DNA of 63,963 bases, filler included, from Reclinomonas americana ATCC 50394 (Eukaryota): NCBI GenBank assembly GCA_048213135.1. It is 5 parts of 4 records of this genome, joined end to end, with 100 filler letters (N's around TTAATTAATTAA, not from the genome) between each part and the next. Parts side by side here need not be neighbours in the genome. Positions count along the whole stretch, not along the records: positions 14,125 to 32,843 come from PS015142.1; positions 32,944 to 56,598 come from PS015142.1; positions 56,699 to 61,831 come from PS015143.1; positions 61,932 to 63,963 come from PS015144.1; 1 more part is not named here. One strand, 5' to 3'. Below the pieces are notes generated by a model. The model was not told the DNA's origin. It was given only the letters and a program-made list of their open reading frames with translations, and did no database searches. Position numbers and translations under genes: made by a program. Positions 17,882-63,963 of this stretch are shown here, piece after piece (positions within the stretch are counted from its first letter, which is position 1; each line of letters begins with the position of its first letter).

Positions 17882-19145
17882 TTATTGTGGTGAGTGGGGA
17901 TGCTGGTGATGGTGCGCTGCTGCTGCGTGCGACGGTCCCGGCATCGCCTGCGACGGCGCCTGGGCGAGATGCTGCTGCTGCTGCTGTTGCTGTTGTAGTT
18001 GCTGCACCTTGACGAGTGGGTTGGCGAACTTGATGGTGATCTTGTTGGGTCGCACGAGGCGATGGATCGACTCGAGCACCTGATCTTTGACCATTTGCTC
18101 CACGGCTTCGTTGTTGCGCATGCGTGCCGGATGCCCGACGATACTCTCAAACTTGTAGTCCAACTCGGGCTCTCGCAGCATCGACACATCGATGACCATG
18201 TGATGGCTGTGCGGTTCTCGCCGCACGTCGATGCACAACTGCGGAGGGATTGATTGAGAACAAGCCTGTACGCCTCGCGCACACACACACAGAATACCGC
18301 ACCCGTGCGCGCAGGATCACAGCCGACACAGTAATGTCGACGGGCAGACTCATCGAAAACCACGACAGCTCCGTGGCAAAGTTCATGGTGGCGTCGCCCT
18401 TGTACTCCACATCCACTTGAATCGACTGCCCCGGTAGCACACACCGTGTTAGCACCATGTACTCGACAATACACGACTGCAAAACGCACCAAGCGACTAT
18501 CGTCAGCCGCATTCGACACCTCCAAGTTGGAGAACACCGGCAACGCATGGCCGAGTGAGAAGTGTCGCAGCTCCAGTGGCGCCTGTCGACCCGCCAGACG
18601 AGTGAGAGCAGACACACACACATACAGCGGGCGGTACATGCACGCAACAATCGCATCCTGCAACTGGAGTCCATCGAGACGATCGCGCACATGCGACTCA
18701 ATCTGCGGTCGCACCTCATGCAGCACCTCATTGTAGATCTTGAAGAGCATCACATTCAACCAGTCACAGTCCTCCGGCTGCTTCTGCACCGGAACCTGTG
18801 CACGCACGCGCAAGTCAGAAAACGAAGAGAAGAACGCGTGGCATTCATTCCACTCCAGCGCGCAACAGCATGTCGAGTCGGATGATGCACGTGTCGTCCA
18901 GCCACAGCCGAAGCCGCCGCACCACTGCCACCACCAGCAATGTGCGACACTGATGATCCACTACTAGAGTCCTCAGCTGCTGCTGCTGCAGCAGCAGCGG
19001 CCTCTTGTAACTGTTGTCGGCGACGCATCATGCGTTCGGCCGTGCGCCGCGCCGGTGGCCCAAAGCGACAGAAGAGCGCCATTAACGCGCCCAACATGGT
19101 CAGCACGCCGCACAGAAAGCCCGTGACAAACCACAGCATCGACAT
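17882..19145 (-). CDS. N-anchored SMP (TULIP) lipid-transfer protein, Mmm1/PDZD8/TEX2-like
   Basis: TM segment WFVTGFLCGV; EDCDWLN motif; LRHFSLGHALPVF; VDVEYKG; EPELDYKFESIVG..RLVRPNKI. Confidence 0.8.
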
Positions 19146-19225
19146 GGTGTGTGTGCGCGCGCGTGAAGAAGGGAACAAGTCAATCAAGAGCGGGACCGTC
19201 GTCCTTTACGTTTGTTCCTCCTCGC

Positions 19226-21119
19226 ATGTCTCTCGCGCAGGCCGCCCGCTCTGGGCTCTGTGTGAGCACTGCAGGTGCGGCGCTGTGGCTCTTCTTGTCG
19301 CAGCGGCGAGCGCACAGTCGATACACGCTCTTTGCGGAGACGACGCCGAGTGCGTCGGTGGCCGAGCAGCACGTTCCGCGTCGCTTGCCACTGCCGCCCA
19401 ACGTGCACCTCCGTCGTGTGATTGTCATTATGCGGTCTGTGTGCTGTGCTTTGTCGCGAGAAAGCTGTGTTGTTTACAGATGGATGCATCTGCGGTGCAG
19501 GCATGGTGATCGTGCGCCTGTCAGTGAGTCGCTGGGTCGCGCGTATCGCGTGACAGAGGAGGAGCGAGCGTACTGGCTGCGGTCGCTGCCGTCGGCCGAT
19601 GACCGGCTGGCCTGGGACGACAACTGCCCGCCGGTGCAGCTGCGTGGTTTTCCCACCATGATGAGTGCCTCACATGTCTTCCCCGCTCACGTCGATCCAC
19701 GTGCGCGCGCGCAGAGACGAGAACCCGAACGAGAGCTACGCGGTGAACTTTAGCCGACGGCACCCGCTGGGAGAGCTGACCACACGCGGAGCGGCGCAGG
19801 CGCGTGGTGTGGGTCACGCACTGCGGGAGCTGTACGTCGAGTACTACGGACTGCTGCCGGCGAGTCTCACTGGCGAGTGTTGCTTGCGGCGTCGTCGTTT
19901 CCTGCGCTGTGCGTGTGCTGACGTGCGGTGGGGTGTCGTTGCAGACGAGAATCGGTCGGCGCTGTTTGTGAGGAGCACTGGCTTCTCGCGCACGGTGCAG
20001 ACGGCGCAGAATGTGGTGCTCGGGCTGTATCCGCCTCCCGCCACCAACTGGATCGATCGGGAGACGGCGGAGCCGGCGCAGCTGCACACCACGGTGCCGA
20101 TCAATGTGCGCTTGTGGGATCGCGAGACGCTCCTGTCCAACTCAGATCGCAAGTGTGCTCGTTTCGCCAGTCTGTTGCGCGCGCACACTCGTCGTGATCG
20201 CGTGCGTGAGGTCGGCGAGGCCGAGCGTGAATTGTCGCAACGTGTGCGGCAGGTGCGTGTACCTGCATGCCCTCCCTTTGCATCGCCGCTGTCTCACTTG
20301 CTGTTTAAATCGCCAAGGCCTACGACATTCCCGAGGGAGAGCACGTGTCGTGGACCGGCGTGCATGAGCTGTTGCGGTGTCGCTATGAGCACGGAATGCC
20401 GTTCCCGGCGCCACTGACTGCCGCCGACTTGGAGTTGGCGGCCGAGATCAACCGTGCGCGCTGGTGGACGTGGTACGCCGATCCGGAGCTCAGCCGTCTG
20501 GCCATGGGACGGTTGCGTGTGGTCAAACAAACGCGCAGAGGTGGTGAGTTGAGTTGTCGCTGACGTCCTTCTCTCTTCGGCAGCCTGGTGGACGACATTA
20601 TCCACATTGCCCGGGACCACGCGCGATCGGGGTAAGAGTCACTCGCGGCCACTTGTGTGTGCACATCAATTTTTCCTCACGTCTCCGTGTGACAGACCAC
20701 GATTGCTGCTCTTCACCGCGCACGACAGCACGATTTTGCCCCTCCTCGCTGCGCTGCAGCTGCACGTTCCGGCCAACGCGGCCGAGAAGAACAATCATGC
20801 CAATAACAACAACAACAACAATCTCGTTGACGGCGTGGAGACGGGTCCTGGACCGGAGGATGTGATGCACGTGTACACTGCCTCGCCGTGGCCGCCGTAC
20901 TGCTCGGCTTTGGTGTTCGAGGTGTACGAGGACACCTCCAATCCGGCTGCGCCAAGCACGCTGCTCCGCGTGGCACACGACGGGCGCGACCTGTGGGTTC
21001 CCGGCTCGTCGTCGCTGTTGTGCCCGCTGGAGGCTTTTGATCGCCGGATGCGACCACACATTCCGGTCGACTACCGCGCAGAATGCGCGAGCACTCATGC
21101 GCCCGCGTCGCGCACATGA
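19226..21119 (+). CDS. Histidine acid phosphatase (clade 2, ACP6-like)
   Basis: Spliced VIMRHGDR, GELT..G, RST..RT..TA, AHDSTI, WPPYCSAL.FE motifs. Confidence 0.9.
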
Positions 21120-21254
21120 GCCAACAATGGCCGGTGGAGCTGCAGTGACACGAAAACAATGGATGCTGAGGCTTCACACATCATCCTTCTATCGTCTCTT
21201 TACTGTCCAATCCCCCCCTGCCATGGTCATCGCCACCAACGCTGCGATGGGAGA

Positions 21255-22735
21255 TCACGACCTGGCAAGCGGATCTTCTCCGAGTTCCCACACGCACACC
21301 TTTTCGTCCCAGCCACACGTGGCCACCTGCAGATGCATTGAGCAACGACACAGATACCGATAGAAGAAAATAAGCACGCCCGCACCTGACCCTCCACGTA
21401 GAGGTTCCAGTCCAGGCCAACCACGAACTCGGTGTGATGCTCATGCTTGTGCAAGATGGGGTCACGCGCCTCCGTGTCCCACACAATCATCGTCATGTCG
21501 CTGTGACAACAGCGCGTGAGTACACACAGGCATGCATGCTTGTGAGAGCGAGCTGCATCCGCGGCGCAACTAGGAGCACGAAGCGAGAATGTTCTCCTCG
21601 TGTGGTGAGCACTTGATGCGACGCACCGCATACGTGTGGCCACGCAGCGTCGACAATTCTTGCTCGGGTGCGCGGAGGTCCTGCGAGGCATGTAGTGAGG
21701 TGACGCAGCAACACCACAGAAAACGAGCACCACGCACCCATATCCTAATCGTCTTGTCGACGGAGCCGGTCACGAGAATGTTGTCATTGTACTTGTTCCA
21801 GTCGCACGTGAGAATCTCGTAGTCGTGCGCCTTCAGGGTCTGCACCGAGTGCAACTCTGCGTACCCATGCGCAACAAACGTCAGGTGCTCGTGTGTGCGT
21901 CGCCACCTGCGCATCGCCGCACAACAACCAAACCATTCACGTCCCAGATCTTGACCGAGCAATCGCCCGAGGCCGACGCAAACACGTTGGCGTCGCTTGG
22001 CGACCAAATCGTCGAGTACACGCAGTACGTGTGCTCCTCGTACGCTCGCAAGCTCTTATCCTGCTCCAGCGACCACACTCGCACAGTCTCATCCCACGAA
22101 CCCGTCACAAACGTGTCCTTGCCTGCAAAACGGTGAGACGTGTGGCAAGGAACGCTCAAGCATACCCAAGCACGCAACCGACGAGGTTCCAGTCCACTGA
22201 ATACGCCTCGTTCTGGTGCTCTGCGTAGCTCTTGAGTGGGTTCTCCAGAGCCTCCAAGTCCCAGATCTGTGCACAACAAGCAGTCAATGCGCCTCCTCCG
22301 ATGTGTCGGAGGGAGTGAAAGCAGCGGTCTCACCTTGACACTTCCGTCGCCACTGACACTGACCAGGTGGTTCTCGTTCTCCTCGCTCCACGCACAGTCG
22401 TACAGGCCATCGTCTGACAGAGAGAAAGAGAGAGAGAGAGGGTCACACTCACTTGCTCATCCTCAACAGCATGCATCTTTCGCAACTCGAATCAAACGTG
22501 TGCACTGTCTCAATCACTCCCTCGTCGGTGTTCACGTCGAGCACATACTGCCGTCCGTTGCCCACAATGCCAAAGTGCTGCGCGGTCGACACGGCCAGAC
22601 GCGTCTCCTCAAAGGGCGAGAACTCGACCTGGTGATGAGCGTGTGTATGAGAGAGTGTTTGTGTGTTGTGTGAGCAGACGGTGCAACGGAGGCACACACC
22701 GAGTAGCCAGAGAACTCGGTGGTGAACACTGGCAT
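21255..22735 (-). CDS. PEX7: Peroxisomal PTS2 receptor (WD40)
   Basis: FSGYSVEFSPF..RLAV..AQHFGIVGNGR, DGLYDCAWSE, AHDYEILTCDWNKY, GHTYAVRRIKCSPH, HHTEFVVGLDW. Confidence 0.96.
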
Positions 22736-22865: not shown

Positions 22866-25800
22866 CTATGGGGGCTTGGCGGCGCCCGGTGGTCTGAACG
22901 ATGGCGGTGGTGGCTTGATGCCGGCCACCGACACTCGTGGTCTGTCGAGTGGAGCCGGTGCTGCATGCGAGGAAGCCAGAGGTAAACAAGAAGGGGCATG
23001 AGAAGAGAGCAGAGGGGTGGTGAGATATGCGTACTCACCACCTGGCGGCTGTGGCGAGCGTGCGCCGACGCTAGACGTTCCCCCGATGCTGGGAGGTGGA
23101 GACACACTCAGCGTCACACCGGAGGCGGCGGCTCCAGCATTCGGACCCGGTGGATACGTGAGCATGGCCGAGGCACCAGCACCGCCTGCACCGTTGGGCG
23201 CACCCTTTTGCTGCGATGCCATCTTGATGCGCAGTGCCGACATTTCTTTCGAAAACTTGCGGGCGTTCTCCATCATCTGCACAGGAGGCGCATCAGGGAC
23301 AGGTGCATGCAGGACGCAGCCAGCACGCGGACGCACCTGTTCCTCCATGGCACGCACTTTGGACTCGGCCTTTTCGGCTCGCATCGCCATGGCGAACTTT
23401 TCTGCGGTCAGCGTCTGCTTCTCCTCGCGCAACTTGGTCAGCTCTTGCATCGCATCCGCCGACGGCGGTTCTCCGCTGCTCCGCGGCAATCGTGAGATAT
23501 CACGTCACGCAATCACAGAGTGCGGGGAGGGGGGTGTACGCACTTGGCTCCCTCGGCTCCAGGTCCTTGCTTCGACATTCGCTGCAGACGAGCATTCTCC
23601 ATGGTGAGCTGCGACTTCTCGCTTCCCCACTTGGCCTGCTCGGCCAGCAGCGCCGCCTTCTCCTTCATCAACTGCGCTTTCTCCCGGCGCAGCTCGGCCA
23701 CGTCGCCCGGCTCGTCGGCTGCGCTCCCGCCCTTGGACGGACTGGAGGTGGGAGTGGTGGAGCCGCCTTGATCTGTCGAACACCCCCCACCCATCACGAG
23801 TGAGTGACACGACGCAGTCGACGCGCACGCCCCTCCTTGCACCAAACGCAACATCGCCTCACAGTGACCTCCAACACCTTCTCCAGTCGCTCAATCACCT
23901 CCTCCTGCTTCTGCGCCGTCTGACGGTACTTTTCGAGACGAGCATTCTTGCTCTGCAGTTTCTGCAGAATCGTGCTCTGGATCATGTGCGCCTGCTCCAA
24001 CTCGATGAGGCGTTTTGAGGCCTCGTTGCCGCGAATGATCTCGTTCTGCAGGCCTTGGATCTTGAGTTCGTACCGGTCCGCCAGTGACTGCAGTCGCCGA
24101 ATCTCCGACAGCGCAGTCCGATGCTCCTCCATCAGCTGCTCTCGCGACAAGTGCTCCAGCGGGCGTGCCGTGTCGAGATGCGACGTGTCGAACTGGTCCA
24201 CCTGAGCCTCCAACCGCTGCACTTCTGCACGCAGTGCGGCGTTCTCGGCCGTCACCTGACGAATGCAAGACCCGTGAGTGGACACGCATGGCGACATGTA
24301 GAGTGGCATCACCACATACCTGTGCAACATGCTCCGACTGATCGTCCAGCTGGTGCAACAACGAGCTAATCACCGCGTCCTTGCCAGTGATGATGCTCTC
24401 GTAGGGCGACGGTTCCGTGCCCCCACTGCTGCTTCTCGCCGAGCTGTTGGTCCCCGAGGATCGCTGCGACGATGCTAGCGCCTCTCCAGGAGTGCCGCTG
24501 TGACAAGTGTGAGGTGATGACAGTGACGAAACGGACAGTCGCGTGGAGTACACACCGATCAGTCGCCGGCGGTGGCCGCCCACCACCACTCGAGTGCTGT
24601 GATCGAGCACTGCCGGGAGATAGCGCGCCAGTGGGTGGTTTGCCCATGCCCGGTGGTGCAAGTCCTCCCGTGCCACCCTGTGGCAGCGGCAGAGCCGGCA
24701 TGTCCGGTCGACCCCGGCTACTCGGCAACAATGCAGTCAGTGATTGTCGGAAAGCTCCTTGGGTGCATCAGTTCAAATGTACCTCGGGGGCTTCTGGTAT
24801 GCCGGCGAATCGGAAGACGAGCGACTGCGCACGTTGGGTCGCTCCGCAGGCGGCGACGACGACAACGAACGATTCGTGTTGGCTCCGCTGCCGTGCGGCA
24901 CTAATCTGTCGTGCTCAGCAGGCGATCGCATAATGGGAACTGGATTGTCTCCGTCTGGTGGCACGACAAGAGCAATCTCAGGGGTGTGAGTACCCAGGAG
25001 AAAACAACTGCGGCTGCTCATCCTCTCTACCACACATGCCTGCACGCGGCCGGCCGGAGCGTGGTGGCAAGTCGGAGGTGGTCGGGCGTTTTCCCGGTGA
25101 TGCTAATGGACACGCACGCAATATAAGAGTTGAACCACGCATGCAAAGTGANNNNNNNNNNNNNNNNNNNNNNNNNNNNNNNNNNNNNNNNNNNNNNNNN
25201 NNNNNNNNNNNNNNNNNNNNNNNNNNNNNNNNNNNNNNNNNNNNNNNNNNNNNNNNNNNNNNNNNNNNNNNNNNNNNNNNNNNNNNNNNNNNNNNNNNNN
25301 NNNNNNNNNNNNNNNNNNNNNNNNNNNNNNNNNNNNNNNNNNNNNNNNNNNNNNNNNNNNNNNNNNNNNNNNNNNNNNNNNNNNNNNNNNNNNNNNNNNN
25401 NNNNNNNNNNNNNNNNNNNNNNNNNNNNNNNNNNNNNNNNNNNNNNNNNNNNNNNNNNNNNNNNNNNNNNNNNNNNNNNNNNNNNNNNNNNNNNNNNNNN
25501 NNNNNCTGCTGCATCGCCATCGTACGCACCACCCATATTGCCGTCGGCCGCGACACGCGGTGATTGCTCACTGGGAGGTCGTCCACCGGCCATTCGTGAG
25601 CTTCGTGGATTCAGAAAGCTGCGAGTGCGTGGGAGAGTCAGCCTCATTCCCGGCCGTCACCCATCTCCACCAGGCAAACCTATTGCGCCCGAGGCTACTT
25701 TGCCGCGAGAGCCGGCCGTCGTCGACGTTGGGAGACGAGGGTGATTTGACAGGATCGGAGAACACGGAGGAGACGGGGCGGACGAGGCCAGCGGACTCAC

Positions 25801-28487
25801 GCCGCAGTTTGACCAGGTACTTTTCCCCAACCCACAGCGCCGTTTTCACATGGAGCTGCATCGCATCCATTCCACGTCACGCCACGACGACAGTGTGGAG
25901 TGGACGGCATGAACAACACAACACGTACCCCACACTTTTCCTCCATGTGGTAATCCGAAGCACCGACGACTCGCAACTTGCAACGCGCACTGCACTCGAG
26001 GCATCCCTGCACCACACCACACCAGCTGTCAAAAAATGCACAAGGCGCATGCAGAAGTGCGCGAGCGCTGACCTCGGGTGTCATGTTCTCCGGCGCCGCA
26101 ATCTCTGATATCGGTATGGACACGAAAGCGCGCAGCTTGGCGCCCAACGAGTGCTCGCCTTCCTCGTCCGGCTGCGCGGTGGCATGCGATGAGCGACAAA
26201 CACACGAGCAGAGAGAGAAGCACAGACAGTGTCAAACCGGTTGCGGAAAGGTGCGCTCGAATAATTGCACCACCACGTGCGTGTTGGGACCGAGTGTTGC
26301 CTGTGCAGAACGTGAGCGTGTGTCGCGAAACAAGGACGCCTGCATGCTACACACACCTGATCTTGCACGAATACGCAGCGCTCGTTGAACTCCACCATCG
26401 ACGAGCGAACACTTCCCGGGAAGAGCACTTGTGGTTTGGAGAGGAAAGGACTCGCGACAAACCCCTGCATCACGCCCGCGTTGTGAGCAGCAGCAGCAGC
26501 AGCGACACCGAGAAATACAGCTCACGCAACAAGACTCTCAAACGGATTCGCCTCCGACAAGTGCACCGTCGACACTGGCAAGTTGATCGAGTAGGAACCC
26601 TGCGCACATGCAAGCGCAGAGTGTGTCAGGCCAGCGCAGACCCACCACCAAGAAGACGGCATCGTGAAACTCTTCTGATGCTAGACTTGAAGATGGTCAT
26701 GTCAGGCATCACCGATACCACCGGCACAAAGTCGCTCACGACACCGGCGGCCGCCAGTTCACCGTCGAGCATCATGATGGACACCTGCACAAGTATAGTG
26801 TTACCCACACACGGACGAGGAAGAGAGGCACAATGACATGCCGCGCACACGTACCCCTAGTCGGCGAAGTGACGGTCGCTCCTCAAACAAAACAATGTCC
26901 TCCTCACGGAAGCGCTCCACCTGCAGCGTCAGATACAGTCGCACACCGTCGCGACTGACGACCTCCAGATTGTGCCTGTGCGCGGGCAGTGGTTGAATAC
27001 AAAGGTAATACAACAGCTGCCCTCCAACAAGCTGGACGCAACGTGTGCGACGATGTCAAGCAGTGGAACGGAATCACAAAACGCAGACCATCGCTCACAC
27101 GACCGTCGGCGCCGTGCAAGCGCACCTGCACTCGCAGACCCACGCTGGCTCCACTGGCCAGATCCTGCACACACAAGGAATTCCCCACGTAGCGTTACAC
27201 AGACTGTGGTTTCAGCGCGGGCAGTCACAGCCTCGCACCTCTTCAGGCAGACTCAATTCAATCGTTCTCCGCCACCGCGCACACTGGCCTTCCACTGCCA
27301 CCGCTTCCACCTCGGCATCGGCACGAACACGAACCACGCCGTCGCCGTCACGTGACTCTGCCACTTCGACGACGTGCTCCACCACCTGGAACGCCACCGA
27401 GGCCATGGCCGCGCCGATCGGTAGCGGCGACGCGCAGTGGGCGTGAATCTTGATGATGCGACAGGCCGGATGCTGGCCCTGAGGGGAGGAAGAAACAAGG
27501 CATGAGAAGGTGGATGAGTTGAACGCTGGTCCACACACACACCTGTAATGGCGTGTTCAACATCGATCGCTGGCCCGGCGGTGGACGATTGCCCGTGGTG
27601 GGCGGTCGACCACGCTTGACCGGCGACATGCCAAAGGCGACAGGCGACACCACACCGTCAATGCTGACACGGAAGCGTGAGGACGGTCCCACTGGCTGCA
27701 GCGTGATACCGGTCAGATTTTGATGTGCCGGCGCTCCCGAACCGATCGGCGGCAACAGCATTCCGCTGTCAGTGGAGGCCAACAGCGGCGTGGCTGAACT
27801 CTGCGCCATCACGGCATCGGTGTCCTCGTCGATCAGCTGCAGCACCAGCCGTGGTCGCCGCGACGGTCGCACGACGAATGCCGCCTCCTCGCCCTGGCAA
27901 ACACACCACGTGTGACTGCGTGTCACACAGAGAGACAAGTGGTCACTGGTCACACAACACACCTCATCGCCCTGCCCGCCCAGCGAAGCACCGTGCATCT
28001 GTCGCAGCAGTCGCGTGCGGTGCACCTCCTCTGCCTTGCCAGCCGCACTCGCTCCACGTGCCGCCGGTTGTCCCACCCGAACCGCCGTTGTCACTGTCGA
28101 ATCCCCTCGATCCTCCTGCACCAACGCCCGCACAAAACACCGCTTCTCGCCCGCCTCCGGCAGCTGCTGCCGATCAACCGCCTCCAGCGAAATGCGCGCC
28201 AAACGCAGCAGAACATTGGCTTCACCATCCAAATCACTCACATCCTCATCCTCATCATCGTCATCATCATCATCGCAGTCTGAGTCAGACTCTGCGCCAC
28301 CATGGCTGCCACGCACACGAGCAGCACCTCCATGTGTCGCACTACTACCACTTGCCGCGGCAGTGGCGACAGGTGGCACCACGGCAGGTGGCTCATCGAT
28401 ACCAGCCGCCCACGTCGGCATGCGCGCCACTTGGTGCGTGCGACGGTCATCGTCGCCGCCACCGCCACCGCTCTCACGTCCACTCAT
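22866..28487 (-). CDS. CCDC33-like protein (C2-like domains + C-terminal coiled coil), spanning gap 25152-25505
   Basis: Beta-rich C2-like exons at 26000-28250; LEQAHMIQ..LQKLQ..KYRQTAQKQEEVIERLE and MMENARKFSKE resemble the CCDC33 C-terminus; one-gene model across the gap is inferred. Confidence 0.55.
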
Positions 28488-28586: not shown

Positions 28587-29342
28587 ATGTCATCGGGGAA
28601 GAAGGCGCCGGCTGCCTCCAGTGGCAGTGGCAGTGGCAGTGCGTCTACCACGCGTCCTGTGCGGACGTCGTCCATGGGCAGCGACCGCGGGGCACCAGTG
28701 CGCACGGATTACAAGACGAGCTGCTGGGGATGTCTGAGTGACAGTGGTGTGCTCGGTGAGAAGCGAGTCGCACGGTGCATGTGTGGGGTCAGTGCTGCTG
28801 CTCATTGTGTCTGCATCAGCACGGAGCTGTTGCTGGAATCAATGGGCTGTGAACTACAATCAGTTGCGCGGACTTGCATGCTGTGTTATGTGCACATTTT
28901 GTGTGTTGACTTTTGTCTCTCAGATCCACCGGAGTGCACACGTCGAGTCGCCAGTCCATCTGCACCAAGCCGTGTCTGGTGCCTCTGGCGTTTTGCTTGA
29001 TTGGTGTGTGTGTGTGTGCATTTTTTTGGTGTGCTCATCAGTGTCATGCTGACTTCAATCGCGTGCAAGGCATGGGTCCGTGCAGCTGCATGTACTACGA
29101 GTATCAGGCGCGCAAGCGAGTACGAGACACGTGGAAGTACAAGGTGCGACATACGAGCAGTCGAGAAAGAGACAGAGAACTCACTCTGTCGCGTGCAGGA
29201 GGATCCGGTCGGCGATGGGTGCAAGACGATAGTGTGCTTTCCGTGTGCGGTGTCACAAACGGCGCGCGAGATCAAGGTTCTGCTGCAGCCCAAGTACGAG
29301 GCGCAACTCGACGAGTTGCTGACGGCGTACAAGAAGACGTAG
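28587..29342 (+). CDS. PLAC8/cornifelin-family Cys-rich protein
   Basis: YKTSCWGCLSD..SCCW..; RKRVRDTWKY..DGCKTIVCFPCAVSQTARE. Confidence 0.85.
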
Positions 29343-29451: not shown

Positions 29452-30851
29452 TTACTCGGCGGCGGCGGCAGAAGACTCGCCCGGTGTGTACGTGGGGTAG
29501 TCGATGTAGCCCTTGTCGCCTCCAACGTACCATGTCTGCAAGTGCACGAACAGGTGAGCATTCCAGCGTCATCATGACACTTCGCACACGCACAAAGGCA
29601 CGTACCGGGTAGTCGTGCTTCGCGAGCGGCGCACCGATGCGAAGGCGCTCGACGAGGTCCGGGTTGGCGATAAACAGGCGCCCGAACGACGCAAAGTGCG
29701 CCTTGCCCGACGCAACGAGGCTCTCGGCCTGCTCGGGCGGCACGCCGCCGTTGATCATCAGCGGCCCCTTGAACTCGCTGAACAGCGCGAGGTTCGACTC
29801 GGCCACCGCCGGGTTGAAGTCGCACAGGTGGATGTAGGCCAACTTGCCGTTCAGGGCCTTGGCGACCGCGTGGTATGTGGCTTCGACGTCGGTGTGCATC
29901 ACGTCGTTGTCTGCGAGAGACAGTGAGTACGCAGACTTCTTCATCGTCTTTGCAGCAGCAGCAGCAAAGGATGACGCAACACTGCGTGACAGGCGACTGG
30001 CGGATGCCGATGCGGTTGGCGGGGAAGTGCTTGCTGACCTCCTCGAGCACCTCGAGCAAGAAGCGCATGCGGTTCTCAATCGAGCCACCGTACGCATCGG
30101 TGCGCTTGTTGGTGCCGTCGCTGAGGAACTGCTGAATGAGGTAGCCATTGGCGCCGTGGATCTCCACGCCATCAAAGCCCGCATGCGCCGCGCGCGCCGC
30201 CCCCTGTCCAAACTCCGCAATGGTGGTGGCGATATCCTCCGCCGTCATCTCCTGCGGCACCGACGCCTTCTTGTTCGTCAGCACGTGGCCGTCGGTGGAG
30301 TCGTACACCTGCACCGAGTCCGCCGGCTCAATGACCGACGGAGCAAACGGAGGGCGGTGGTCGGGCGTGTAGTCCGAGTGACCAACACGGCCGGCGTGCC
30401 ACAGCTGCAGGAAAATGTAGCCGCCCTTGGCGTGCACGGCCTCGGTCACCGCGCGCCAGCTTTCCGCTTGCTCGTCGCTCCAGATGCACACGGCGTTGTT
30501 GAAGGGAGTGCTCATGCGCGAGACGTTGGTGGCGTCAGTGATCTGCCATTGCATGTTTGAGAGAGAGAGACAGACAATAAGAGTGAGTGGGGCAACACGC
30601 TTACCAGCAGGCCACCGGGAGTGGCGCGCTGTGCAAAGTGCACCGCCACATTGTCTTGCAGCAGCTGTTCAGAGGGAGTCAGTTGCAGCAGTCGTCGCGG
30701 CGAGTGACGCAAAAAAGAAAGAGCGCGCAACGAAATCCGGGGCTCCGCGAGTGCGGCTGCGAGTCATCGGTGCGAGGACCACGCGGTGCGACAGCTGCAG
30801 GTCGCCGACTTGGAAGGGGGAGAGGAGAGTGGGGTACTGGTTAGCGCTCAT
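29452..30851 (-). CDS. Old yellow enzyme (NAD(P)H:flavin ene-reductase, classical subclass)
   Basis: HRVVLAPMTR, QLWHAGR, GFDGVEIHGANGYL, NKRTDAYGGS, FGRLFIANPDL, GYIDYP. Confidence 0.96.
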
Positions 30852-31861: not shown

Positions 31862-33056
31862 ATGTCTGCCTCCCCTCAACGCATCTTTGTCACCGGAGCC
31901 TCTCGTGGCATCGGTGAGTGAGTCTCACTCACCCACACACATGAACTTGCAGACACTCACCGCGCGCCTCTCACTTCCTCTCCAGGTCTCGCCCTGGTCA
32001 CGGAGCTCGCCGAGGCCGGCCACACTGTGTTTGCGGGCGCTCGCGACCCCGACGCCGCCACGGCGCTGCAAGAGCTCGTCGCCCGTTTCCCCCACACGGT
32101 GACTGCGGTGCAGTGTGACGTGGTCGATGACGCCTCTGTGGAGCGTGCGGCGGCGGAGATTGCCGCGCGCACCGACGGCGAGATCGACTGGGTCATCAAC
32201 AATGCCGGCATCACGGGCGAGAAGACCAGTTGCGCTGCTGCATGACACACCTACCTACCTCTTCGTTTGCATTGTCGCTCACCTCCTTCCCTCGCCATCG
32301 TAGCGTACCACCTGGACACGATTGACCGCGCCGGAGTGCTGGAGGTTCTCAACGTGAACGCAGTGAGCCCGCTGATCGTCAGCAAGGTGTTCAAGCCGCT
32401 GCTTGCCAAGTCCAAATCCGCCAACAAGGTACTTGCTTGGCCTCCTCGTCCCCCGTGTTCCTTCTCCCTCTCACGTGTGGTGTGCCGCGACGCAGCAACT
32501 GGTGTTCATCTCCTCCATTCTCGGATCGACGCAGCTGGCCGCCGGCGGCACATGGAGTGCGCTGGCCTACCGCCAAAGCAAGGCTGCTGTCAACATTAGT
32601 GCGTTACACTGTCTCTCTTTCTCTCTCTCTCTCTGTCGTGCATCGCTCACTGGCGCCCCACCGTGCACAGCCGCCAAGGTGCTCAAGACCGAGTTCGACG
32701 AGCTCAACGTCGTCGTCACAAGCATCCACCCGGGTTGGGTCGATGTTGCGCATCGCTCTCATTCTCTCCTCCCTCCCCCCTTCCCTCGACGCTCACCATT
32801 CTCTCCACTCACCAGACCGACATGGGACGCGCAAACGGCGAGCNNNNNNNNNNNNNNNNNNNNNNNNNNNNNNNNNNNNNNNNNNNNTTAATTAATTAAN
32901 NNNNNNNNNNNNNNNNNNNNNNNNNNNNNNNNNNNNNNNNNNNCACCGCTGAAGGTGGGCACGGTGGCGCCGGCCATCATCAAGGTGGTGGAGTCGTCGA
33001 CGCTGGCCGACTCCGGATCATTCCGGTCATGGGAGGGTCAAACGATCCCCTTCTAG
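31862..33056 (+). CDS. C-factor/CsgA-like short-chain dehydrogenase/reductase (spans linker gap)
   Basis: TGASRGIG, INNAG, YRQSK, HPGWVDTDMG, SGSFRSWEG..IPF*. Confidence 0.95.
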
Positions 33057-37379: not shown

Positions 37380-37445
37380 TGATGGCACAGTGTACAGAAA
37401 GAGAATCAACAACTTTGTATTTGTACACACGTGCACGCACGTCGC

Positions 37446-40731: not shown

Positions 40732-40935
40732 ATGGAGAGTGCACTGTTGGCGCTGCTGTCGGCACCGAGCAAGTCGTTTGTGGACCGGCTCTTTCTCAAG
40801 GCCTTCTCGTGTCGACATGATCGCGCACCTCCGGCCGAGTTTGTCTCCGCAGTCGCCGAGCAACTGGGCGCCGATGAGCCCAGCACTCTGCAAGTTGCAC
40901 ACACACACGATGCTCATGAGAGACACGCCGCACAC

Positions 40936-40975
<40 letters not shown>

Positions 40976-41534
40976 GTTGATTCACGCGATTCAAGAGTGC
41001 ATTGGCAAGTCGCAGTATGCGGCCGAGTCAGAGGTCGGCTCTGGTGCCGAGTGTGCGAATGCGGCGCTGTCGGCTGAGTTTGAGCCGCGGTTGCGTGCGC
41101 TCATTGGTGACATTCTGTGGGCGCATCGGCAAGAGTGGCGAGAGGAGTCCATTCAGGTCCTCCTTGCCTTGTGAGATGAAGTTCCGACGAGCGCTGCGCG
41201 CGCGCTGATCCTCCGTGTGCTGCGCAGACGCAAGTGTCGTTCCCGCGACTGGTGGACTTTGACTGGCGAGTGGACGTGCGAGCGGCGTCGCAGTTGGTTG
41301 GACGCATGGCGGCACCGGCTGTGTTGCTGTCGCTCAAGGTACATTCTTCCCCCCTTTGCTTTGTGAGTCGTTTGTTGTGGTGCTCATGTGGCCGTGTAGA
41401 CGCTGGCCAACCCGACCAAGAGTGGAGTGGTGCCACCGGTGCAGAATGTGACGTTTGAGATGACGCGTGAGACGTTGCAGGCGCTGTTGAATGGGCTCGG
41501 CGACATTCGCACGCAGCTCAATGCACTCAAATGA
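40732..41534 (+). CDS. COMMD9: COMM domain-containing protein 9
   Basis: LLALLSAPSK; PRLVDFDWRVDV..RMAAP..L.L; NVTFEMTRETLQALLNGLGDIRTQL. Confidence 0.85.
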
Positions 41535-50327: not shown

Positions 50328-50517
50328 ATTATTTGTCAAAATGAACATCACTCACGATTTCACACTCTCGTGCAGCAAAACTTTCTTTTTGTGTACAACA
50401 ACCACATCATCATCATCATCATCATCATCTCTGTCTCCTCTCCTCGCCCCATCAAGCGAGTGAAAAAATAGTAGCAACAGCTTCCACAGGCAACCGTAAA
50501 ATGCGACAGGCGGCAGC

Positions 50518-52961
<2,444 letters not shown>

Positions 52962-55433: not shown

Positions 55434-55439
55434 ACACAA

Positions 55440-57410: not shown

Positions 57411-60057
57411 ATGAGCGACGAGCACCAGCAAGTGTTGCACATTCTGCGGCACCCGCTGCAAGTGATTGATGCGGCCTTTGAGGAGCTGGTGAGCAGTGGG
57501 GAGGAGCAGGACGCTGCTGCGTGTGAGCAGGTGTGTGCGCAGGCGCGAGAGAGTGTCGATGCGTCGGGCACGTTTCGACCAGCCGCTGTGGGCGAAGACG
57601 CCGTGCTGCAAGTGATTCACGATGAGTCGGTCTATGCCAGAGTTGCGATCAACAACATGCATGGGAGATCAATCACACATTCTTTCTCACTCTCCCCGCA
57701 CAGATTCCGCTGTTGAATGCGTGCCGACAGCGTGATCTGGTCGATGGGTGCATTGTGCGGTACCGGTGCATGGTGCAAGACATGTGGGATCCGGAGCTGT
57801 ACGTTGGCACGTTTGTGTTGCATCACGCGGCAAGTGGAGCTGTGCGTGTTGTCCATCACAAGTACCGCGATGCGCTCGATGTGCCAGTGCGTGACAGTCC
57901 CACCTTCCCTTGTGTGTGTATGTACCATCTCATCGCGTTGTGCGCCAGCCTGGGTGTGACATTGACACTGATTTCACCAATCCGCTGGTGGTGACGGCAC
58001 CGCGACGATCATAGTTGCGACGCAGCAGTGTTCTTTCCCTCCCATCTGCCGTCCTTCTCATGTTTGTTTTTGTTGGCAGTTATGCGGTGCCGGTGCCGGG
58101 TCTCACCGAGTGGGCGCTGGCCTCGCAGCAGGAGGAGAATCGCGCGAATTGCTACGGGTGGGGCGAGGATGTGTTTGTGGTGATGGACGACGAGAGGCAG
58201 AGGCGGAAGCGACGGGCGGTGGCCGACGAATCCGATCCGCTTGATGTGCGACTGGCCTCGGGTGCCGCGGCTGCGCAGGCGGAGAGCGACATGGCACGTG
58301 AGGGTGGTGCGCCGTCGAAGCGCAAGCGTCGACGGGGTGGTGACGACGAGGTAGATGACGACGACGACGACGATGGTGAGGAAGGAGGCGCGAGAGGGCG
58401 CATGGTGGACGACGGTGACGGTGGCGAGGGAGAGGAAGATGAGCATGGCGACGACGGGGAACGTCGCAGTCGCGCAGGCCCATCGCGCTCGCCGGTGTCG
58501 TCCGGCACCGCTGCTGCGGCTGCGGCTCCCGGTGCACGAGTTCCGGTGGCGCAGATTGGCAATCGCAATCTGCCGCTGGCCTCTGCCGATCGAGCGCCCC
58601 CGTGTGTGCTGCATGTTGCGCGTGGGCGTGTTGTCGCGTTTTGCTCCGGAGCGTTGACTGAGAGAAAGAGGGTGTGCGACAGATTTACGACGAGGAGACC
58701 TCGGTGGAGAGCATGTTCAAGATCTGCGACGTGATTGAGGTGGTCGGCATTCTCGCCGTGGACGGCATCAGCGATGACCTGGTGTACACAGACGAGTTGC
58801 GTGCAGTCGATCTCCTTGTGGCGTTGGCTTCCTTGTTGTTGATGAGTGTGTGGTTCTCGTGCGCAGAGGTGCACTGATGAGCGAGTTCCCCGAAGATGTG
58901 GCCGCACACCACCCGCCGCACGCCTTTGTTCCGCGCATTCACGTGCTCGCACACCGCCCGTTGCCGACGCTGATCTCGCCGATGGCACTCTCGGCGCCAT
59001 CCATTCCCACGGCGCTCGTCGAAGTGCGTGAACACCTGATTGACTTTCTCGCGTTCCACTTGGGCGGCGATCGGCTGGCCGCCACGTACTTGCTGCTCAA
59101 CTTGATCTCCAGAGTGTTGCGTACGTGCACATGCACAGAAGCGTATTGCTTTGTCTCACCGTCCGTCGTGTTGCCGGTGCAGAGAAGATCGTCGGTACGA
59201 TCAGCCGCTCGGCACATTTGCCTTGTCACTGGGCATGCTGTCGAGCGCCGACGTGGAGCGCCTGGTGCAGTGCGTGATTGCACCGCTGTTGCCGGCGTTG
59301 CATGTGGTTCGCTGCTCGCCCGAGGCTCTCGGTGCCGCGTCGATGGTGCCGTGGAAGGACCTCACCGAAAACCGACTGAAGGCCGGCGCACTGCAGCTGT
59401 GTGCTGGCACGCATCTGTGTGTGGACGAGACGGTGTTGCGCGAGGGCGCCGTGGGGGAGGTGGCGGCGCGCAACATGCAGGCGCTCCGCTCCGTCGCCGA
59501 TCAGCAGACCCTCGAATACGATCTGGGCTTCTCACCGAAGACATTCTACACCGACATGCCAGTGCTGGCGTTCACCACACACCGCAAGTCGATTCTCGAG
59601 GTCTGTTCTCTTTGATTCCCTCCATCGTTGTGCGGTCCCTCATTGGCGTTTTTATGGTAGATTCGCTGCTGCGTGCCTCTCGCCGGTCGCGTCGCGCACG
59701 GCGGTGACATGACTCCATTCGACGTCAACATTCCCGATTTCCGCGCCTACATTGCTCACGTGCGCACGCTGCGTGCACGACTCGACGAGGCCACGTCGGA
59801 ACTCGTGCAGACGGACTATGCGCGGTTGCGCAGTGATGGGTCGCATGGCAACGTCGATCAGGTATGTGTCTCTCGCTCTGTGTGCGTGTGAGGGGTATGC
59901 TGCTCACTTGCATTTTTACGTCGTGCAGTTCAAACTGAGCATGTGGCTGGACGCGGCCAAACTGCTGGCGGCGAGCTACGGCGAAGAGGTGGTAACGGCG
60001 GAGCGATGGAGTGCAGTGCTGGGCGCTGAGCGCGATCGCTTGGATCGACTGCGATAG
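57411..60057 (+). CDS. MCMBP: Mini-chromosome maintenance complex-binding protein
   Basis: IVRYRCMVQDMWDPELY, YAVPVPG..W, EVVGIL, VPRIH, GGDRLAATYLLLNLISRV, PWKD..NRLKAGALQL..GTHL.VDET. Confidence 0.93.
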
Positions 60058-60144
60058 ACCAATAATCCTTCAACAATCAACAACAACAAACCAATGCAAC
60101 ACCATTTTTAATTCCACTCTGCATCTAGCCTCCATTGCAGCGCG

Positions 60145-61670
60145 TCACCTGCGAATGTGGTACTTTTTGTACAGACTCATGAAGCGCGCGACAAATGCCT
60201 CGATGTGGAACACGGGCTTCGAACCGAGCTTCATGCGATGCTCCTGCGACTTAAAATGTCAGGGAGTCAAGGAAAGAAGACGGTGTGGAGTGAAGCAACG
60301 CAACATAGTGGGCGGCCCACTTGAGCACCTCGTAGGCGAGGTACACGTCGATCTTGGTGAGCAGCGCCAACACGAGGGTCTTGATGATGGCCTCCGGCGG
60401 AATGCAGTTGACAATCAGCTCGTAGATCTTGCCGCGCACGTCCACGATGCTGTTTATGCACGTTCAGTCAGTCAGAGCGATATGAAGGGGGAGAGAGAGA
60501 GATGCAGGTAGCAAGTGCACACCGTTTGGGACTCTGCTCCTGAATCATGCGGGCAGAGATAAAGTTGACAAACACCTCCCAGTGCGGTCTCTCCACCAGC
60601 TGCGCGTCGGAGAATGGATATCTGTGGCATTGGAGTGAGTCAGGGACGTCAACTTTGCTTGACCACAGATCCCGAATGCAACTGTTGCACGCGGCACACT
60701 TCCAATTGCAGCAGCGCGCGTCGCAAGTTGCCATCGGCCGACTCCGCAATGCGTTCCGCCAGTGCGGGTGGCAGCTGCAGCTTCTCCGCTCGCGCCACCT
60801 CGTGCAGCACTTGGGTGATCTGCGCAGAATAGTGAGTGTGCACACGCTGGGACGGCGATGGAGTTGCCAAGCATCACCTCGGCAGCTCCGGGAGCGGGCA
60901 CTCGAATCGGCACACATCGACTGCGCAGTGGCTCCAACAACTTGGAGGTGGTCTGCGAGGTTGTTGCTCGGCTATGAGTGCCTGACAACAATTGATACAA
61001 TTGGATCGGGTGACACACACCGTCGCCACCAAGATCAAGCGGCACGTGCCCATGTACTTTTCCATGGTGCGACGCAACGCCTGCTGCGCTTCGCGACTGA
61101 GGAGGTCCACATCACGCAGAACGACGACTGCGATCCAACGAGTCAGCACGAATTCGTTGCCAAAAAACACATGCTGTGCACTCACCCTTGAAGACGTGCG
61201 TCGAAGCAGTCGTCACAATCGGAGCACTGCTGGCAATCTCCTTGATCATCTCGCGCACTACCAGGCGGTCGTAGATGCCCACATCGCTGCGTGCGTGACA
61301 AAAAATGAGCTCCACACACGCCAGCGGAACTCTCTTGCGTGCACAGTTAGCAAACCTCGGTTTGACCTCGATGTGGTGCGCACTCGAGAGCACCACCAGC
61401 TCCACATCAGCGCCGCTCGGTTTCTGCAGCACGGCGCGTGATCAGCACACACTCAAAGTGGAGACACACAGCACATGAAGGCACCGACCTTGAACGTCTT
61501 GGTCTCGGCACGCAACTGCGCACCACACACCAACAATCAGTCTCTCGCATGCAAGCCACGAATCAAGCAACACAAGCTCGCCACACCTTGCGTGCACCCG
61601 GTCCAAACAACTCCACCAGCAGTGCACTCACACGCGTCTGTTTGCCGGCGCCCGAGGGACCAAAGAACAG
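60145..61670 (-). CDS. RFC3: Replication factor C subunit 3 (yeast Rfc5 type), 5' end in gap
   Basis: [67 protein letters not shown]. Confidence 0.95.
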
Positions 61671-61760
61671 CTGCAAAATACACACAAAGCGTGAGACAAC
61701 TCAGTTGCTCAACTGGATCCCTCGTTCCCGCACTCCCCACTCGCTCTTCGTTCCTTCCCT

Positions 61761-61761
<1 letters not shown>

Positions 61762-61823
<62 letters not shown>

Positions 61824-61830
61824 CTCGCTC
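61762..61830. repeat. (CT)n microsatellite
   Basis: CT run next to the gap. Confidence 0.9.
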
Positions 61831-61986
61831 TNNNNNNNNNNNNNNNNNNNNNNNNNNNNNNNNNNNNNNNNNNNNTTAATTAATTAANNNNNNNNNNNNN
61901 NNNNNNNNNNNNNNNNNNNNNNNNNNNNNNNTGGGTTAGGTCGATATCGACTGTCAAACATGGGGAGATGTGAATGATGATTAACC

Positions 61987-62490
61987 TTGGCGAGGTTGGG
62001 CAGGTTGACGCCCAGCGACATTGAGCGATCGCATCGGAACTTCTTGAAGCCCTGCACACCAACAATTGTGAGTGTGAGAGAGAGAGGCAAGGTGGCCATG
62101 GACAACCCCCCTCTCGACAGACATCGCCACTCTTTCTTTCTCCCCCCCCTCCTCTCTCTCACTCTCGCTCCCGCCTCTCACGTGTGACGCAACATCAGCG
62201 CGCAGCATCATGTGGACGAGAGAGACGTGTGAGGGATCCATGGCCTGCAGCGACAATCCCGATGATGATGCCTGCTCATTGACTCACATGAGCACACATA
62301 CAGAGCAGAGAGCAGAGAGAGTCGCGGGGTTGCGCAACATCAAAGTTTGCCTCAATCACCAACTCCTTCACTGTGAGTGAGCGTGTGAGCGTGTGAGTGC
62401 GTGATGAGGTACTTTGATCATCACTGCGCGCTCACCAGCCTCAAGCACTCGCTTGAGCACGTGTCCTTGTTGCATCCGAGCCTCGAACAT
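61987..62490 (-). CDS. PCNA: Proliferating cell nuclear antigen, 5' part (rest in gap)
   Basis: MFEARM.QG..LKRVLEAVKELV.EANFD..GLSLQAMDPSHVSLV..FRCDR..SLGVNL. Confidence 0.96.
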
Positions 62491-62772
62491 GGTAATTAGA
62501 GTGGTGGTGGTGGTTGCGCGCACGCTGTGTTGACACGATTGAAGCAAATAGGCAAACCCTGGACAGATTCGTGTCGCGCGGGAGGTACTCGCGACGTCGC
62601 TCGACCGGCAACCACAAGAAGCACGAGTGGAAGGCAGCGCACGGTGCTGTTGCGCGCTGCATTAAACATAGCCACACGTGGACGCGAAGAAGAAGGAAAG
62701 AGAAATGACATCAAGTGTCCTGCGATTGACGCCGACGTTGCTTTTCTACTTGCACATAACACGCGCGCGCGA

Positions 62773-63963
62773 ATGAGTGAAGCTGCAATGGCCGGTGAGG
62801 CCACTGGCACCGCCGGAGTGGCACCCATCAAACCCGAGTTGCGTCTCACGCACACGCTCACACACACGCCATGTCACACTCACTCACACTGATACACGCA
62901 GGTTCATTCTTGCGCGTCCTCCTCCGCCGCCGCCGCCAGTAGCAGCAGCAGCAGCAGCAGCACCAGTTGAAGCAACTGATGCAGCCAGTGGCAGTGGTGT
63001 ATCAGTGCCAGTGGATCTCGGCGATCAAGTGACGCTGGAGGGCACTGGCAAACGTGAACGAGCAGAGGTAAGTCTCTCTCTTTCTCTCTACTCTCTCACT
63101 GTGCATTGCATCCTGCTGAACGAACGACTCGCCGCAGCAAGTGGAAGCAGAGCCGCGACGGAAGCGACAACGCGGCATGAATCGTGGAGCCGAGCGCCCG
63201 CGCAATCCAGTGCCGAAAGAGGTGCATTGCTTTGCTTGCCTTCCCTGTCCACACACGTGCCTGAGTGAGTAATGTGCAGCGTACACAAGGGCTGCCATCG
63301 GGTCGCTTGACCGAGTTCAACTGCTTCTCCAGCACGCTGCTGCGCGACTTGCGCAAGCGGCGCAATTTTCCGCGCACCAAGGCCGCCGAGAGACACGCTG
63401 CGGCTGCTATCAAGGTCCTGCTGCCGGCGTCTACAGTGGCCGCAGCGGCGGCGGCTGCTGCAGAGGCGGAGAATGCGGCAGAGGCGGCGGCGGCAGTGGT
63501 GGTGGCGACTGCGGGTGAGCCATCATCGTCTTCGGCACCAGTTGTCGACGATCGCGAGGAAAAGGTGACTGTCGATGGTGATGGCGATGCCACCATGACG
63601 ACGCCGACACCACCGACTGCGGCTGCCCCGCTGCACGCCGGCGGAAGCGAGTACGTGGAGACGCGGCAGCTGGCGCGAGAGAAGAAGAAGGTGTCGTGAG
63701 CGCGCATGCATACAGAGGAGACGAGTGGAGGGAAGTGTGAGCTGATGATGTCTGTCGTGTGTACAGCTGGACTTCAAGGACAAGCTGTATCTCGCCCCGC
63801 TGACCACCGTCGGTAATCTGCCATTCCGCTGCGTGTGCAAGCGACTCGGTGCCGATGTCACCATTGGTGAGATGGCCATGACGCCCGAGTGCATGAAGGT
63901 GTGTGATTTTTTCTTTCTCTCTTCTGCGTGCCGTGAGGCGAACGGTGAGGAGTGGTACTCACA
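62773..63963 (+). CDS. DUS3: tRNA-dihydrouridine(47) synthase, 5' part
   Basis: [55 protein letters not shown]. Confidence 0.93.

Follow-up and report, generated by a model that had tools for sequence, protein, structure and literature searches.

The window analysed here is the whole 63,963-nucleotide stretch from the genome of Reclinomonas americana ATCC 50394, made up of five joined parts, and the present report concerns a class of its predicted introns whose 5' splice sites (donors) read GTTGCG or, in a minority, GTTGCA (together GTTGCR). The window has a G+C content of 58% and carries eukaryotic genes that are densely packed on both strands; those recognised by profile encode an Aurora kinase, an old-yellow-enzyme reductase, a short-chain dehydrogenase, a WD40 protein, an MCM-binding protein, a replication factor C (RFC) small subunit and PCNA. 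Their introns are short, mostly 56-80 nucleotides (nt), with a CTSAY branch motif that lies 12-26 nt upstream of the YAG at the 3' end. These introns fall into two donor classes, which have 3' signals in common and covary with the last exon base (position -1). Canonical donors typically follow an exonic G, GTTGCR donors show no such preference, and in the latter class the consensus preferences are displaced by one base on both sides of the cut.

Prediction of the introns and the GTTGCR donors

Introns were called with a self-trained gene finder. It joins coding scores, from codons and a 3-periodic Markov model, to intron jumps, and a jump is scored by its acceptor, branch site, length and donor positions +3 to +8 only. 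Exon positions -3 to -1 were kept out of the donor score on purpose; therefore, selection by the finder cannot create an effect at -1. A first model with one donor matrix yielded 38 gene models with 171 introns, among them 36 with GTTGCR donors. It misplaced the third intron of the Aurora kinase gene, with a donor at 15562 where alignment to five Aurora kinases places it at 15552. A second model with a two-component donor mixture replaced it. This yielded 34 gene models with 190 introns, of which 47 have GTTGCR donors, and joins some neighbouring genes (e.g. 44534-50471 with 30 introns). For the second model the margin of an intron is the amount by which the path score falls if the intron is disallowed. 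Its GTTGCR introns are as follows, a slash marking the cut between exon and intron.

2240..2290 (-) predicted intron, G/GTTGCA, weak, margin 2.9
2416..2483 (-) predicted intron, T/GTTGCG, margin 10.1
4304..4367 (-) predicted intron, A/GTTGCG, margin 14.7
7236..7301 (-) predicted intron, A/GTTGCG, margin 5.2
10966..11036 (+) predicted intron, T/GTTGCA, weak, margin 2.0
11680..11758 (+) predicted intron, A/GTTGCG, margin 7.0
12919..12978 (+) predicted intron, T/GTTGCG, margin 3.5
18583..18648 (-) predicted intron, T/GTTGCG, margin 6.0
18796..18866 (-) predicted intron, T/GTTGCG, margin 3.6
20512..20583 (+) predicted intron, G/GTTGCG, exception in the preliminary description, margin 12.0
21501..21570 (-) predicted intron, A/GTTGCG, margin 2.5
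22123..22178 (-) predicted intron, G/GTTGCG, WD40 gene, exception in the preliminary description, margin 18.8
22414..22486 (-) predicted intron, A/GTTGCG, margin 21.4
23773..23852 (-) predicted intron, T/GTTGCG, margin 7.4
26465..26530 (-) predicted intron, T/GTTGCG, margin 12.3
28863..28923 (+) predicted intron, A/GTTGCG, margin 8.8
29911..29980 (-) intron, T/GTTGCG, old-yellow-enzyme gene, ungapped alignment over the junction at residue 247, Pfam coordinates, margin 35.7
30665..30731 (-) intron, C/GTTGCG, old-yellow-enzyme gene, alignment runs through residue 40 with a 2-residue gap 5-6 residues upstream, margin 14.0
32229..32303 (+) predicted intron, A/GTTGCG, short-chain dehydrogenase gene, margin 36.5
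32745..32815 (+) predicted intron, T/GTTGCG, margin 10.7
33928..33988 (+) predicted intron, T/GTTGCG, margin 2.2
38326..38402 (-) predicted intron, A/GTTGCG, margin 4.6
38813..38880 (-) predicted intron, T/GTTGCG, margin 5.2
39323..39393 (-) predicted intron, A/GTTGCG, margin 21.2
39561..39627 (-) predicted intron, A/GTTGCG, margin 13.2
40894..40976 (+) predicted intron, A/GTTGCA, margin 15.1
41964..42030 (-) predicted intron, A/GTTGCG, margin 7.6
42439..42505 (-) predicted intron, T/GTTGCG, margin 4.8
42531..42593 (-) predicted intron, T/GTTGCG, margin 7.9
45510..45578 (+) predicted intron, C/GTTGCG, margin 9.5
46302..46366 (+) predicted intron, A/GTTGCG, margin 32.7
46489..46552 (+) predicted intron, A/GTTGCG, weak, margin 2.3
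47450..47517 (+) predicted intron, A/GTTGCA, margin 10.7
47736..47805 (+) predicted intron, C/GTTGCG, margin 11.2
48352..48413 (+) predicted intron, C/GTTGCG, margin 8.5
49487..49549 (+) predicted intron, A/GTTGCG, margin 4.7
51111..51180 (-) predicted intron, G/GTTGCG, third exception, margin 9.9
57642..57703 (+) predicted intron, A/GTTGCG, MCM-binding-protein gene, margin 5.1
58014..58079 (+) predicted intron, A/GTTGCG, MCM-binding-protein gene, margin 12.3
58615..58682 (+) predicted intron, T/GTTGCG, MCM-binding-protein gene, margin 40.5
58796..58866 (+) predicted intron, A/GTTGCG, MCM-binding-protein gene, margin 4.5
59116..59182 (+) intron, T/GTTGCG, MCM-binding-protein gene, flanking exons match MCM_bind profile 243-321 and 325-462
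60244..60304 (-) intron, T/GTTGCG, RFC small subunit gene, RFC_C profile 21-70 then 71-92, ungapped alignment at residue 313
60622..60682 (-) intron, A/GTTGCA, RFC gene, ungapped alignment at residue 231.7
62052..62193 (-) predicted intron, T/GTTGCG, PCNA gene fragment, atypical length of 142 nt, margin 3.8
62272..62338 (-) predicted intron, T/GTTGCG, PCNA gene fragment, margin 5.6
62838..62901 (+) predicted intron, A/GTTGCG, margin 10.8

Junctions were checked by aligning the spliced models to homologues and by the Pfam profile coordinates of the flanking exons; as the exons are short, exon-by-exon Pfam scans gave usable coordinates for few genes only. The 14 junctions that were homology-checked, in the genes for the Aurora kinase, old yellow enzyme, RFC and MCM-binding protein, comprise five GTTGCR donors with G at -1 in 0/5 and nine canonical donors with G in 9/9. 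The canonical ones, together with an intron of this class that follows a non-G exon end, are listed below.

15098..15170 (+) canonical intron, G/GTTTGT, Aurora kinase gene, ungapped alignment at residue 158, Pkinase profile 3-100 then 103-242
15552..15626 (+) canonical intron, G/GTACGC, Aurora kinase gene, best among all GT/GC-AG alternatives against five Aurora kinases
30543..30604 (-) canonical intron, G/GTAAGC, old-yellow-enzyme gene, homology-checked
60450..60522 (-) canonical intron, G/GTGTGC, RFC gene, homology-checked
60820..60877 (-) canonical intron, G/GTGATG, RFC gene, homology-checked
60953..61020 (-) canonical intron, G/GTGTGT, RFC gene, homology-checked
61128..61185 (-) canonical intron, G/GTGAGT, RFC gene, homology-checked
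61287..61355 (-) canonical intron, G/GTTTGC, RFC gene, homology-checked
61516..61586 (-) canonical intron, G/GTGTGG, RFC gene, homology-checked
32599..32670 (+) predicted canonical intron with a non-G exon end, A/GTGCGT, dehydrogenase gene, counter-example in the preliminary description, margin 4.1

Three further junctions were not confirmed: 61488 has a 2-residue gap right at the junction in the homologue alignment, 61733 sits at the alignment edge and 29593 has a margin of 0.2.

Covariation of the exon-final base with donor class

Across all 190 introns of the second model, the base at -1 is A in 21, T in 18, C in 4 and G in 4 of the 47 GTTGCR introns, as against G in 102, T in 19, A in 13 and C in 9 of the 143 others. 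With a margin of at least 2 and a length of at most 120 nt, G is found in 4/46 GTTGCR versus 92/115 other donors (Fisher p=1.6e-17). The contrast grows with the confidence of prediction, the counts being 3/39 versus 76/91 at margins of at least 4 and 2/19 versus 36/44 at margins of at least 10. The first model gives A 13, T 16, C 4 and G 3 for its 36 GTTGCR donors and G in 90 of its 135 others; when limited to introns of 45-110 nt the counts of G are 3/36 versus 88/127 (Fisher p=4.0e-11). The association is present in each of the three codon phases. Read from the exon side, 42 of the 65 confident donors that follow a non-G base are GTTGCR, versus 4 of the 96 that follow G. Mutual information likewise links -1 to positions +3 to +6 (z = 11-19); this signal is gone once the GTTGCR class is removed, and no significant dependency of this kind is left within the canonical class. 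Thus, both the contingency and the mutual-information analyses of the predicted introns bear out the covariation that the preliminary description had proposed.

The preliminary description had further counted 31 of 33 GTTGCR donors between 18643 and 62843 as following a base other than G. In this range the second model predicts 40 such donors (37 GTTGCG and 3 GTTGCA; -1 = A 18, T 15, C 4, G 3), and 83 of the 111 other donors there follow G. The split between the classes stands, and the two exceptions named, 20512 (+) and 22178 (-), do read G/GTTGCG, with a third at 51180 that had not been listed. The lack of G before GTTGCR is, however, not unusual by itself and reflects composition, since the 112 non-donor occurrences of GTTGCR in the window have G in only 13 (A 28, C 31, T 40). 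Consistent with this, GTTG in the window has G before it 13.7% of the time, and no active avoidance of G before GTTGCR was detected on comparing donors with non-donors (p=0.78). Canonical donors, in contrast, have G at -1 in 80% versus 17% of a hexamer-matched background, and A at -2 in 43% versus 16%, whereas in GTTGCG donors G at -1 is not enriched at all. Hence, the source of the contrast is that canonical donors enrich the exon-final G and GTTGCG donors remain at background.

In ordinary numbering, G at +5 accompanies 79 of the 96 donors with G at -1 and 16 of the 65 with another base at -1. The two bases are therefore positively associated, the inverse of the classical seesaw, and to this extent the distinction that had been drawn from the described -1/+5 trade-offs holds. 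Among the individual examples offered, the Aurora kinase alignments confirm G/GTTTGT at 15098 and G/GTACGC at 15552, and G/GTGAGT at 31914 is a predicted donor of the second model. The association had been described as less than absolute, and A/GTGCGT at 32599 is indeed predicted. As to the suggestion that GTTGCR is selected when exon-side pairing is weak, the covariation is strong, but the direction of causation lies beyond what these data can give.

The hexamers can also be assessed independently of any gene model. GTTGCR occurs 159 times in the window versus 130 +/- 8.6 times in shuffled sequence, and no other hexamer is as strongly enriched as GTTGCG for being continued in an intron-like way (49/92 versus 28.6% of all GT hexamers). 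By 3'-end score, 32/92 GTTGCG have an intron-like 3' context against a baseline of 10%, and GTTGCA shows no excess (9/67); the class is essentially GTTGCG, and one GTTGCA donor, 60682, has homology support. By the same test, G at -1 is more frequent in canonical hexamers that have an intron-like 3' context (e.g. GTGAGT, 10/17 versus 13/57 otherwise), but not in GTTGCG (4/32 versus 7/60). Retention of the intron would cause a frame shift or a stop in 41/46 GTTGCR introns.

Beyond the donor the two classes are alike. The median length is 67 nt in both; the CTVAY branch motif was found in 33/36 GTTGCR and 111/127 other introns of the first model, at median distances of 19 and 17 nt; and the -3 base of the 3' end is C in 31/36 and 112/127, respectively, and C or T in nearly all. 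There is no class difference in the spectrum of branch motifs, the branch distance or the first exon base past the intron. This likeness is partly by construction, because the acceptor and branch model was common to both classes during prediction. Both classes occur together in 22 gene models, and no gene model has GTTGCR donors only. No conserved sequence was found beyond +7 of the GTTGCR donors. Judged by their termini, branch site and the protein alignment restored upon their removal, the introns of both classes are predicted to be U2-type GT-AG spliceosomal introns. U12-type introns were considered and rejected. Their consensus comprises an RTATCCTT donor and a TCCTTAAC branch site, and both motifs differ from those seen here; furthermore, GTTGCR introns do not depart from the others in branch site or branch distance, and the share of GTTGCR is far too high. 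The U12-type donor motif does resemble the GTTGCG class in being long and rigid and in having no conservation on the exon side.

Some weaker donor forms touch on the same theme. A GTTACG donor at 35514 (+), which had been proposed to show the same extra-U relation to GTACG, follows G with a margin of 0.8 and falls outside the rule; the other predicted GTTACG donor, 16777 (-), reads A/GTTACG with a margin of 2.4. Both are too weak to show whether GTTACG relates to GTACG as GTTGCG does to GTGCG. Three GTGGCG donors of the first model follow a non-G base, at 13115 (C), 53599 (A) and 62130 (A), and hint at a possible tolerance of G besides T as the extra base; GTGGCG has no excess of intron-like context (10/117), and these three may be false calls.

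Genes and other features of the window

The gene for the MCM-binding protein (57411-60057, +) encodes about 708 residues and has eight predicted introns, five of which begin with GTTGCG. The single-matrix model broke this gene into two because it missed the GTTGCG introns at 58615 and 58796. One of its exons had no match in a protein similarity search. The old-yellow-enzyme (NADH:flavin oxidoreductase) gene (29452-30851, -) has four spliceosomal introns, and the full-length proteins nearest to it in the collection searched are bacterial alkene reductases with about 44-54% identity; an exon taken alone gave about 52% identity to bacteria and 44% to an oomycete. The gene may be an old bacterial acquisition, or may come from a poorly sampled eukaryotic clade. 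An Aurora exon shows 75-82% identity alike to animals, red algae, choanoflagellates and fungi, and an exon of 297 amino acids (36196-37086) had no related DNA in a metagenome scan. No RNA gene, including those for small nuclear RNAs (snRNAs), was matched by Rfam in the window.

Dinucleotide microsatellites of the CT/GA and CA/GT types are common in introns and intergenic DNA throughout the window. Several low-margin GTGTGT donors with T at -1 (e.g. 6453, 8766, 29008, 46862 and 52101) arise from GTGTGT microsatellite runs and are probably false calls. Four identical spacers (14025-14124, 32844-32943, 56599-56698 and 61832-61931) consist of 44 N, TTAATTAATTAA and a further 44 N, the core having stop codons in all six frames. 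They look like artificial linkers joining contigs, and the true adjacency and order of the pieces may differ. Plain runs of 20-471 N occur at 5816, 25152, 51512 and 52107.

Proposed registers of recognition and their alternatives

The canonical profile of the first model can be written (A)G/GTGNGT, with G at -1 in 69%, G at +3 in 61%, G at +5 in 78% and T at +6 in 61%. In GTTGCR donors T is found at +7 in 59-69%, versus 61-67% for canonical T at +6, and for positions +7 to +10 a one-base shift of the canonical profile gives a better fit than no shift (log-likelihood -241.9 versus -259.6, a gain of 17.7). On the exon side, A at -1 in 21/47 GTTGCR donors (45%) versus 28/112 non-donors (25%) echoes the canonical A at -2, and the combined frequency of A and T is raised (odds ratio 3.2, p=0.009). 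The one-base offset that had been noticed by eye is thereby recovered on both sides of the cut.

These observations suggest that the two forms of donor are a single recognition word cut in two registers one base apart, a proposal for which we see about an even chance. Around three quarters of the introns are of the form G/GTNNGT, with an exon-final G in 72-85%, and around one quarter of the form H/GTTGCG(T). Both would match a common seven-base word, G-(G/U)-U-G-N-G-U, before which an A is preferred; as written, G-G-U-G-N-G-U and G-U-U-G-C-G-U differ solely in the second letter. The cut would be placed before the first GU within the word, so that the first G of GGUGNGU stays in the exon, while in GUUGCGU the first G of the word would be intron base +1. 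In the second form this +1 G would fill the slot normally held by the last G of the exon, and therefore the true last exon base would be unconstrained, with background composition and a mild preference for A. The pair lost at the second slot would be paid for by the optimal G, C, G and T at all other slots. We infer that one RNA partner, U1 and subsequently U6/U5, might read both classes in registers one base apart. The wider proposition that two cleavage registers are a routine genome-wide mode used by about a quarter of the introns, or that a U1 or U1 variant is tuned to GUUGCGU, is put forward tentatively, as possible rather than probable.

Several points weigh against reading the donors as one word in two registers. 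The sample is 64 kb of one genome, all introns in it are predictions from sequence with 14 homology-checked junctions, and the self-trained gene models contain errors, such as the misplaced Aurora donor and the fused neighbouring genes. T at -1 in GTTGCR donors (38%) is at background, against 18% for canonical T at -2, so that the enrichment of A is the only one in common. C is found at +5 in 41/43 GTTGNG donors versus 24/58 at the equivalent position of GTGNG (p=4e-9); the GTTGCG motif is thus not a general shift of GTGNGT, and a plain shift does not predict the C. In counts made with no donor model, an intron-like context is in little or no excess for GTTGAG (2/29) and GTTGTG (8/45). Among the non-G cases, H/GTGCGT (6) is about six times rarer than H/GTTGCGT (38), though its pairing is expected to be equal or better. 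Duplex energies, computed with a standard U1 5' end (the 11-mer from PMC4856993) that is perhaps not the organism's own, have medians of -1.4 kcal/mol for GTTGCR, -2.4 for random GT and -6.8 for canonical G-ending donors. In the minimum-energy duplexes the +1 G of GTTGCR lies on U1 C9 in 6/46 and on C8 in 3/46, and with this standard end a shifted duplex more stable than the canonical one is not borne out. Varying U1 positions 5-6 in silico (16 combinations) gave at best, with G and C, -6.7 for GTTGCR, -8.5 for canonical donors and -5.5 kcal/mol for background, and a changed U1 end of this kind was rejected because it discriminates too poorly from background. The partner of GTTGCG could be a shifted U1 stabilised by protein, an unusual U1 end or a variant U1, or the motif could be subject to a later check by U6.

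The foremost alternative, which appears rather unlikely, is that GTTGCG(T) has a recognition partner of its own, such as a variant U1 snRNA, an unusual U1 5' end that complements GUUGCGU, or a protein with sequence specificity in the U1 small nuclear ribonucleoprotein. As this partner would touch intron bases only, the exon base would be irrelevant. The sharpness of the motif, with about 11.5 bits over +1 to +7 and nothing beyond, is in keeping with this, as are the strict C at +5, the poor showing of GTTGAG and GTTGTG beside GTTGCG, and the lack of useful pairing with the standard U1 end; the upstream preference for A and the T at +7 are equally compatible with a single partner for both classes. 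To our knowledge, the 5' ends of U1 are nearly invariant among eukaryotes, which weighs against a partner of this type.

Less probable still is ordinary compensation between exon and intron, as between left-handed and right-handed 5' splice sites, without any shift of register, in which GTTGCG would be the species' strongest intron-side signal, for U6 or a LUC7-type factor, and could for that reason spare the exonic G. Canonical donors without G at -1 do lean towards GTGCG (7/23 versus 17/92), but not significantly (p=0.25). With C rather than G at +5, GTTGCG is weak on both sides when numbered in the ordinary way; G at -1 tends to go with G at +5; and the canonical class shows no significant dependency between -1 and +3 to +6. 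Moreover, GTGCGT, the best canonical intron side, retains G at -1 in 12/18 versus 3/41 for GTTGCG (p=5e-6).

That the pattern is an artefact of composition, of ascertainment by eye or algorithm, or of wrong intron boundaries is improbable. The non-G base before GTTGCR is indeed the background state, at least one predicted intron of the first model is wrong, and a cut three bases downstream (GTT/GC) would keep the frame and is conceivable. Against this, exon bases were never used in calling donors, false canonical calls would dilute a contrast that in fact rises with confidence, GTTGCG stands out among hexamers for its intron-like 3' context, and the homology-checked junctions show an identical split. 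The ungapped alignments at 29980, 60304 and 60682 favour a cut before GTT over one three bases later. Finally, a young GTTGCG intron family spread by a mobile introner inserting at non-G-ending sites, of which a uniform 5' end on many introns might be a trace, was rejected as highly implausible, there being no information beyond +7, no excess of shared interior 8-mers (3.1% of GTTGCR pairs versus 4.0% of canonical pairs) and no departure from other introns in length or 3' signals.

The reading as one word in two registers has partial counterparts among the noncanonical U1 registers of human donors. In Tan et al. 2016 (PMC4856993), the shifted register of Roca & Krainer 2009, described for rare human sites, is summarised as having all base pairs moved by one, and the validated noncanonical registers together account for about 1.5% of human 5' splice sites. 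As in that register, the +1 G here would occupy the U1 C9 slot with the downstream contacts one base on, and the last exon base would occupy the -2 slot, comparable to the model oligonucleotide ACA/GUCAAGUAUA with A at -1 in the same source. The differences are that the class forms about 25% of the introns of the window, that the motif is GUUGCG(U) where the human one is given as GUNAAGU, and that energy prediction with the standard U1 end does not yield a stable shifted duplex. In the bulge +2/+3 register (Roca et al. 2012), for which Table 3 of PMC4856993 gives 68 predicted human sites, a U is bulged after GU. GU-U-GCGU is likewise canonical GUGCGU plus one U, the extra-U relation pointed out in the preliminary description; however, a bulge leaves -1 opposite C9 and G at -1 should therefore still help, whereas here it is at background (4/47 versus 13/112 in non-donors), and the +1 G pairs with C8 in no more than 3/46 minimum-energy duplexes.

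5' splice sites have also been divided into two main classes, namely AG//GUNNN, dependent on U5 loop 1 ('left-handed'), and NN//GURAG, dependent on the U6 ACAGA box ('right-handed') (PMC11732430, PMC11842720). The donors described here resemble these in that one class depends on the exon end and the other on intron bases, the two being mixed within genes and served by one spliceosome. Unlike the right-handed class, the GTTGCG class has no +5 G when numbered in the ordinary way. The split here is close to two-state and not graded, and G at -1 goes with G at +5; a negative association emerges only once GTTGCG is renumbered by one base. The system resembles the known cases in how it works but differs from them in its share of about one quarter, its GUUGCG(U) motif with an obligatory C, its near two-state behaviour and the inverted relation of -1 and +5. 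Full-text literature searches gave no description of GTTGCG donors among the papers listed, sequence logos and supplementary tables being outside their reach.

In splice-site models and gene finders, donors are taken to follow one profile whose positions are independent, and scoring by such a profile would go wrong for a quarter of the donors here. Surveys of 'handedness' across species would misclassify such a case, because its -1/+5 seesaw is inverted. For coding sequence, the GTTGCG class lifts the constraint for an exon-final G. If it extends genome-wide, this organism would offer a clean natural test of the uncoupling of the U1 binding register from the later choice of cut site, a question that in animals rests on a few dozen atypical sites. 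If either the two-register mode or the U1 tuned to GUUGCGU is true, a noncanonical register between U1 and the 5' splice site would in this natural system be a major class and no longer a rare exception, and the last base of the exon would be set free in that class.

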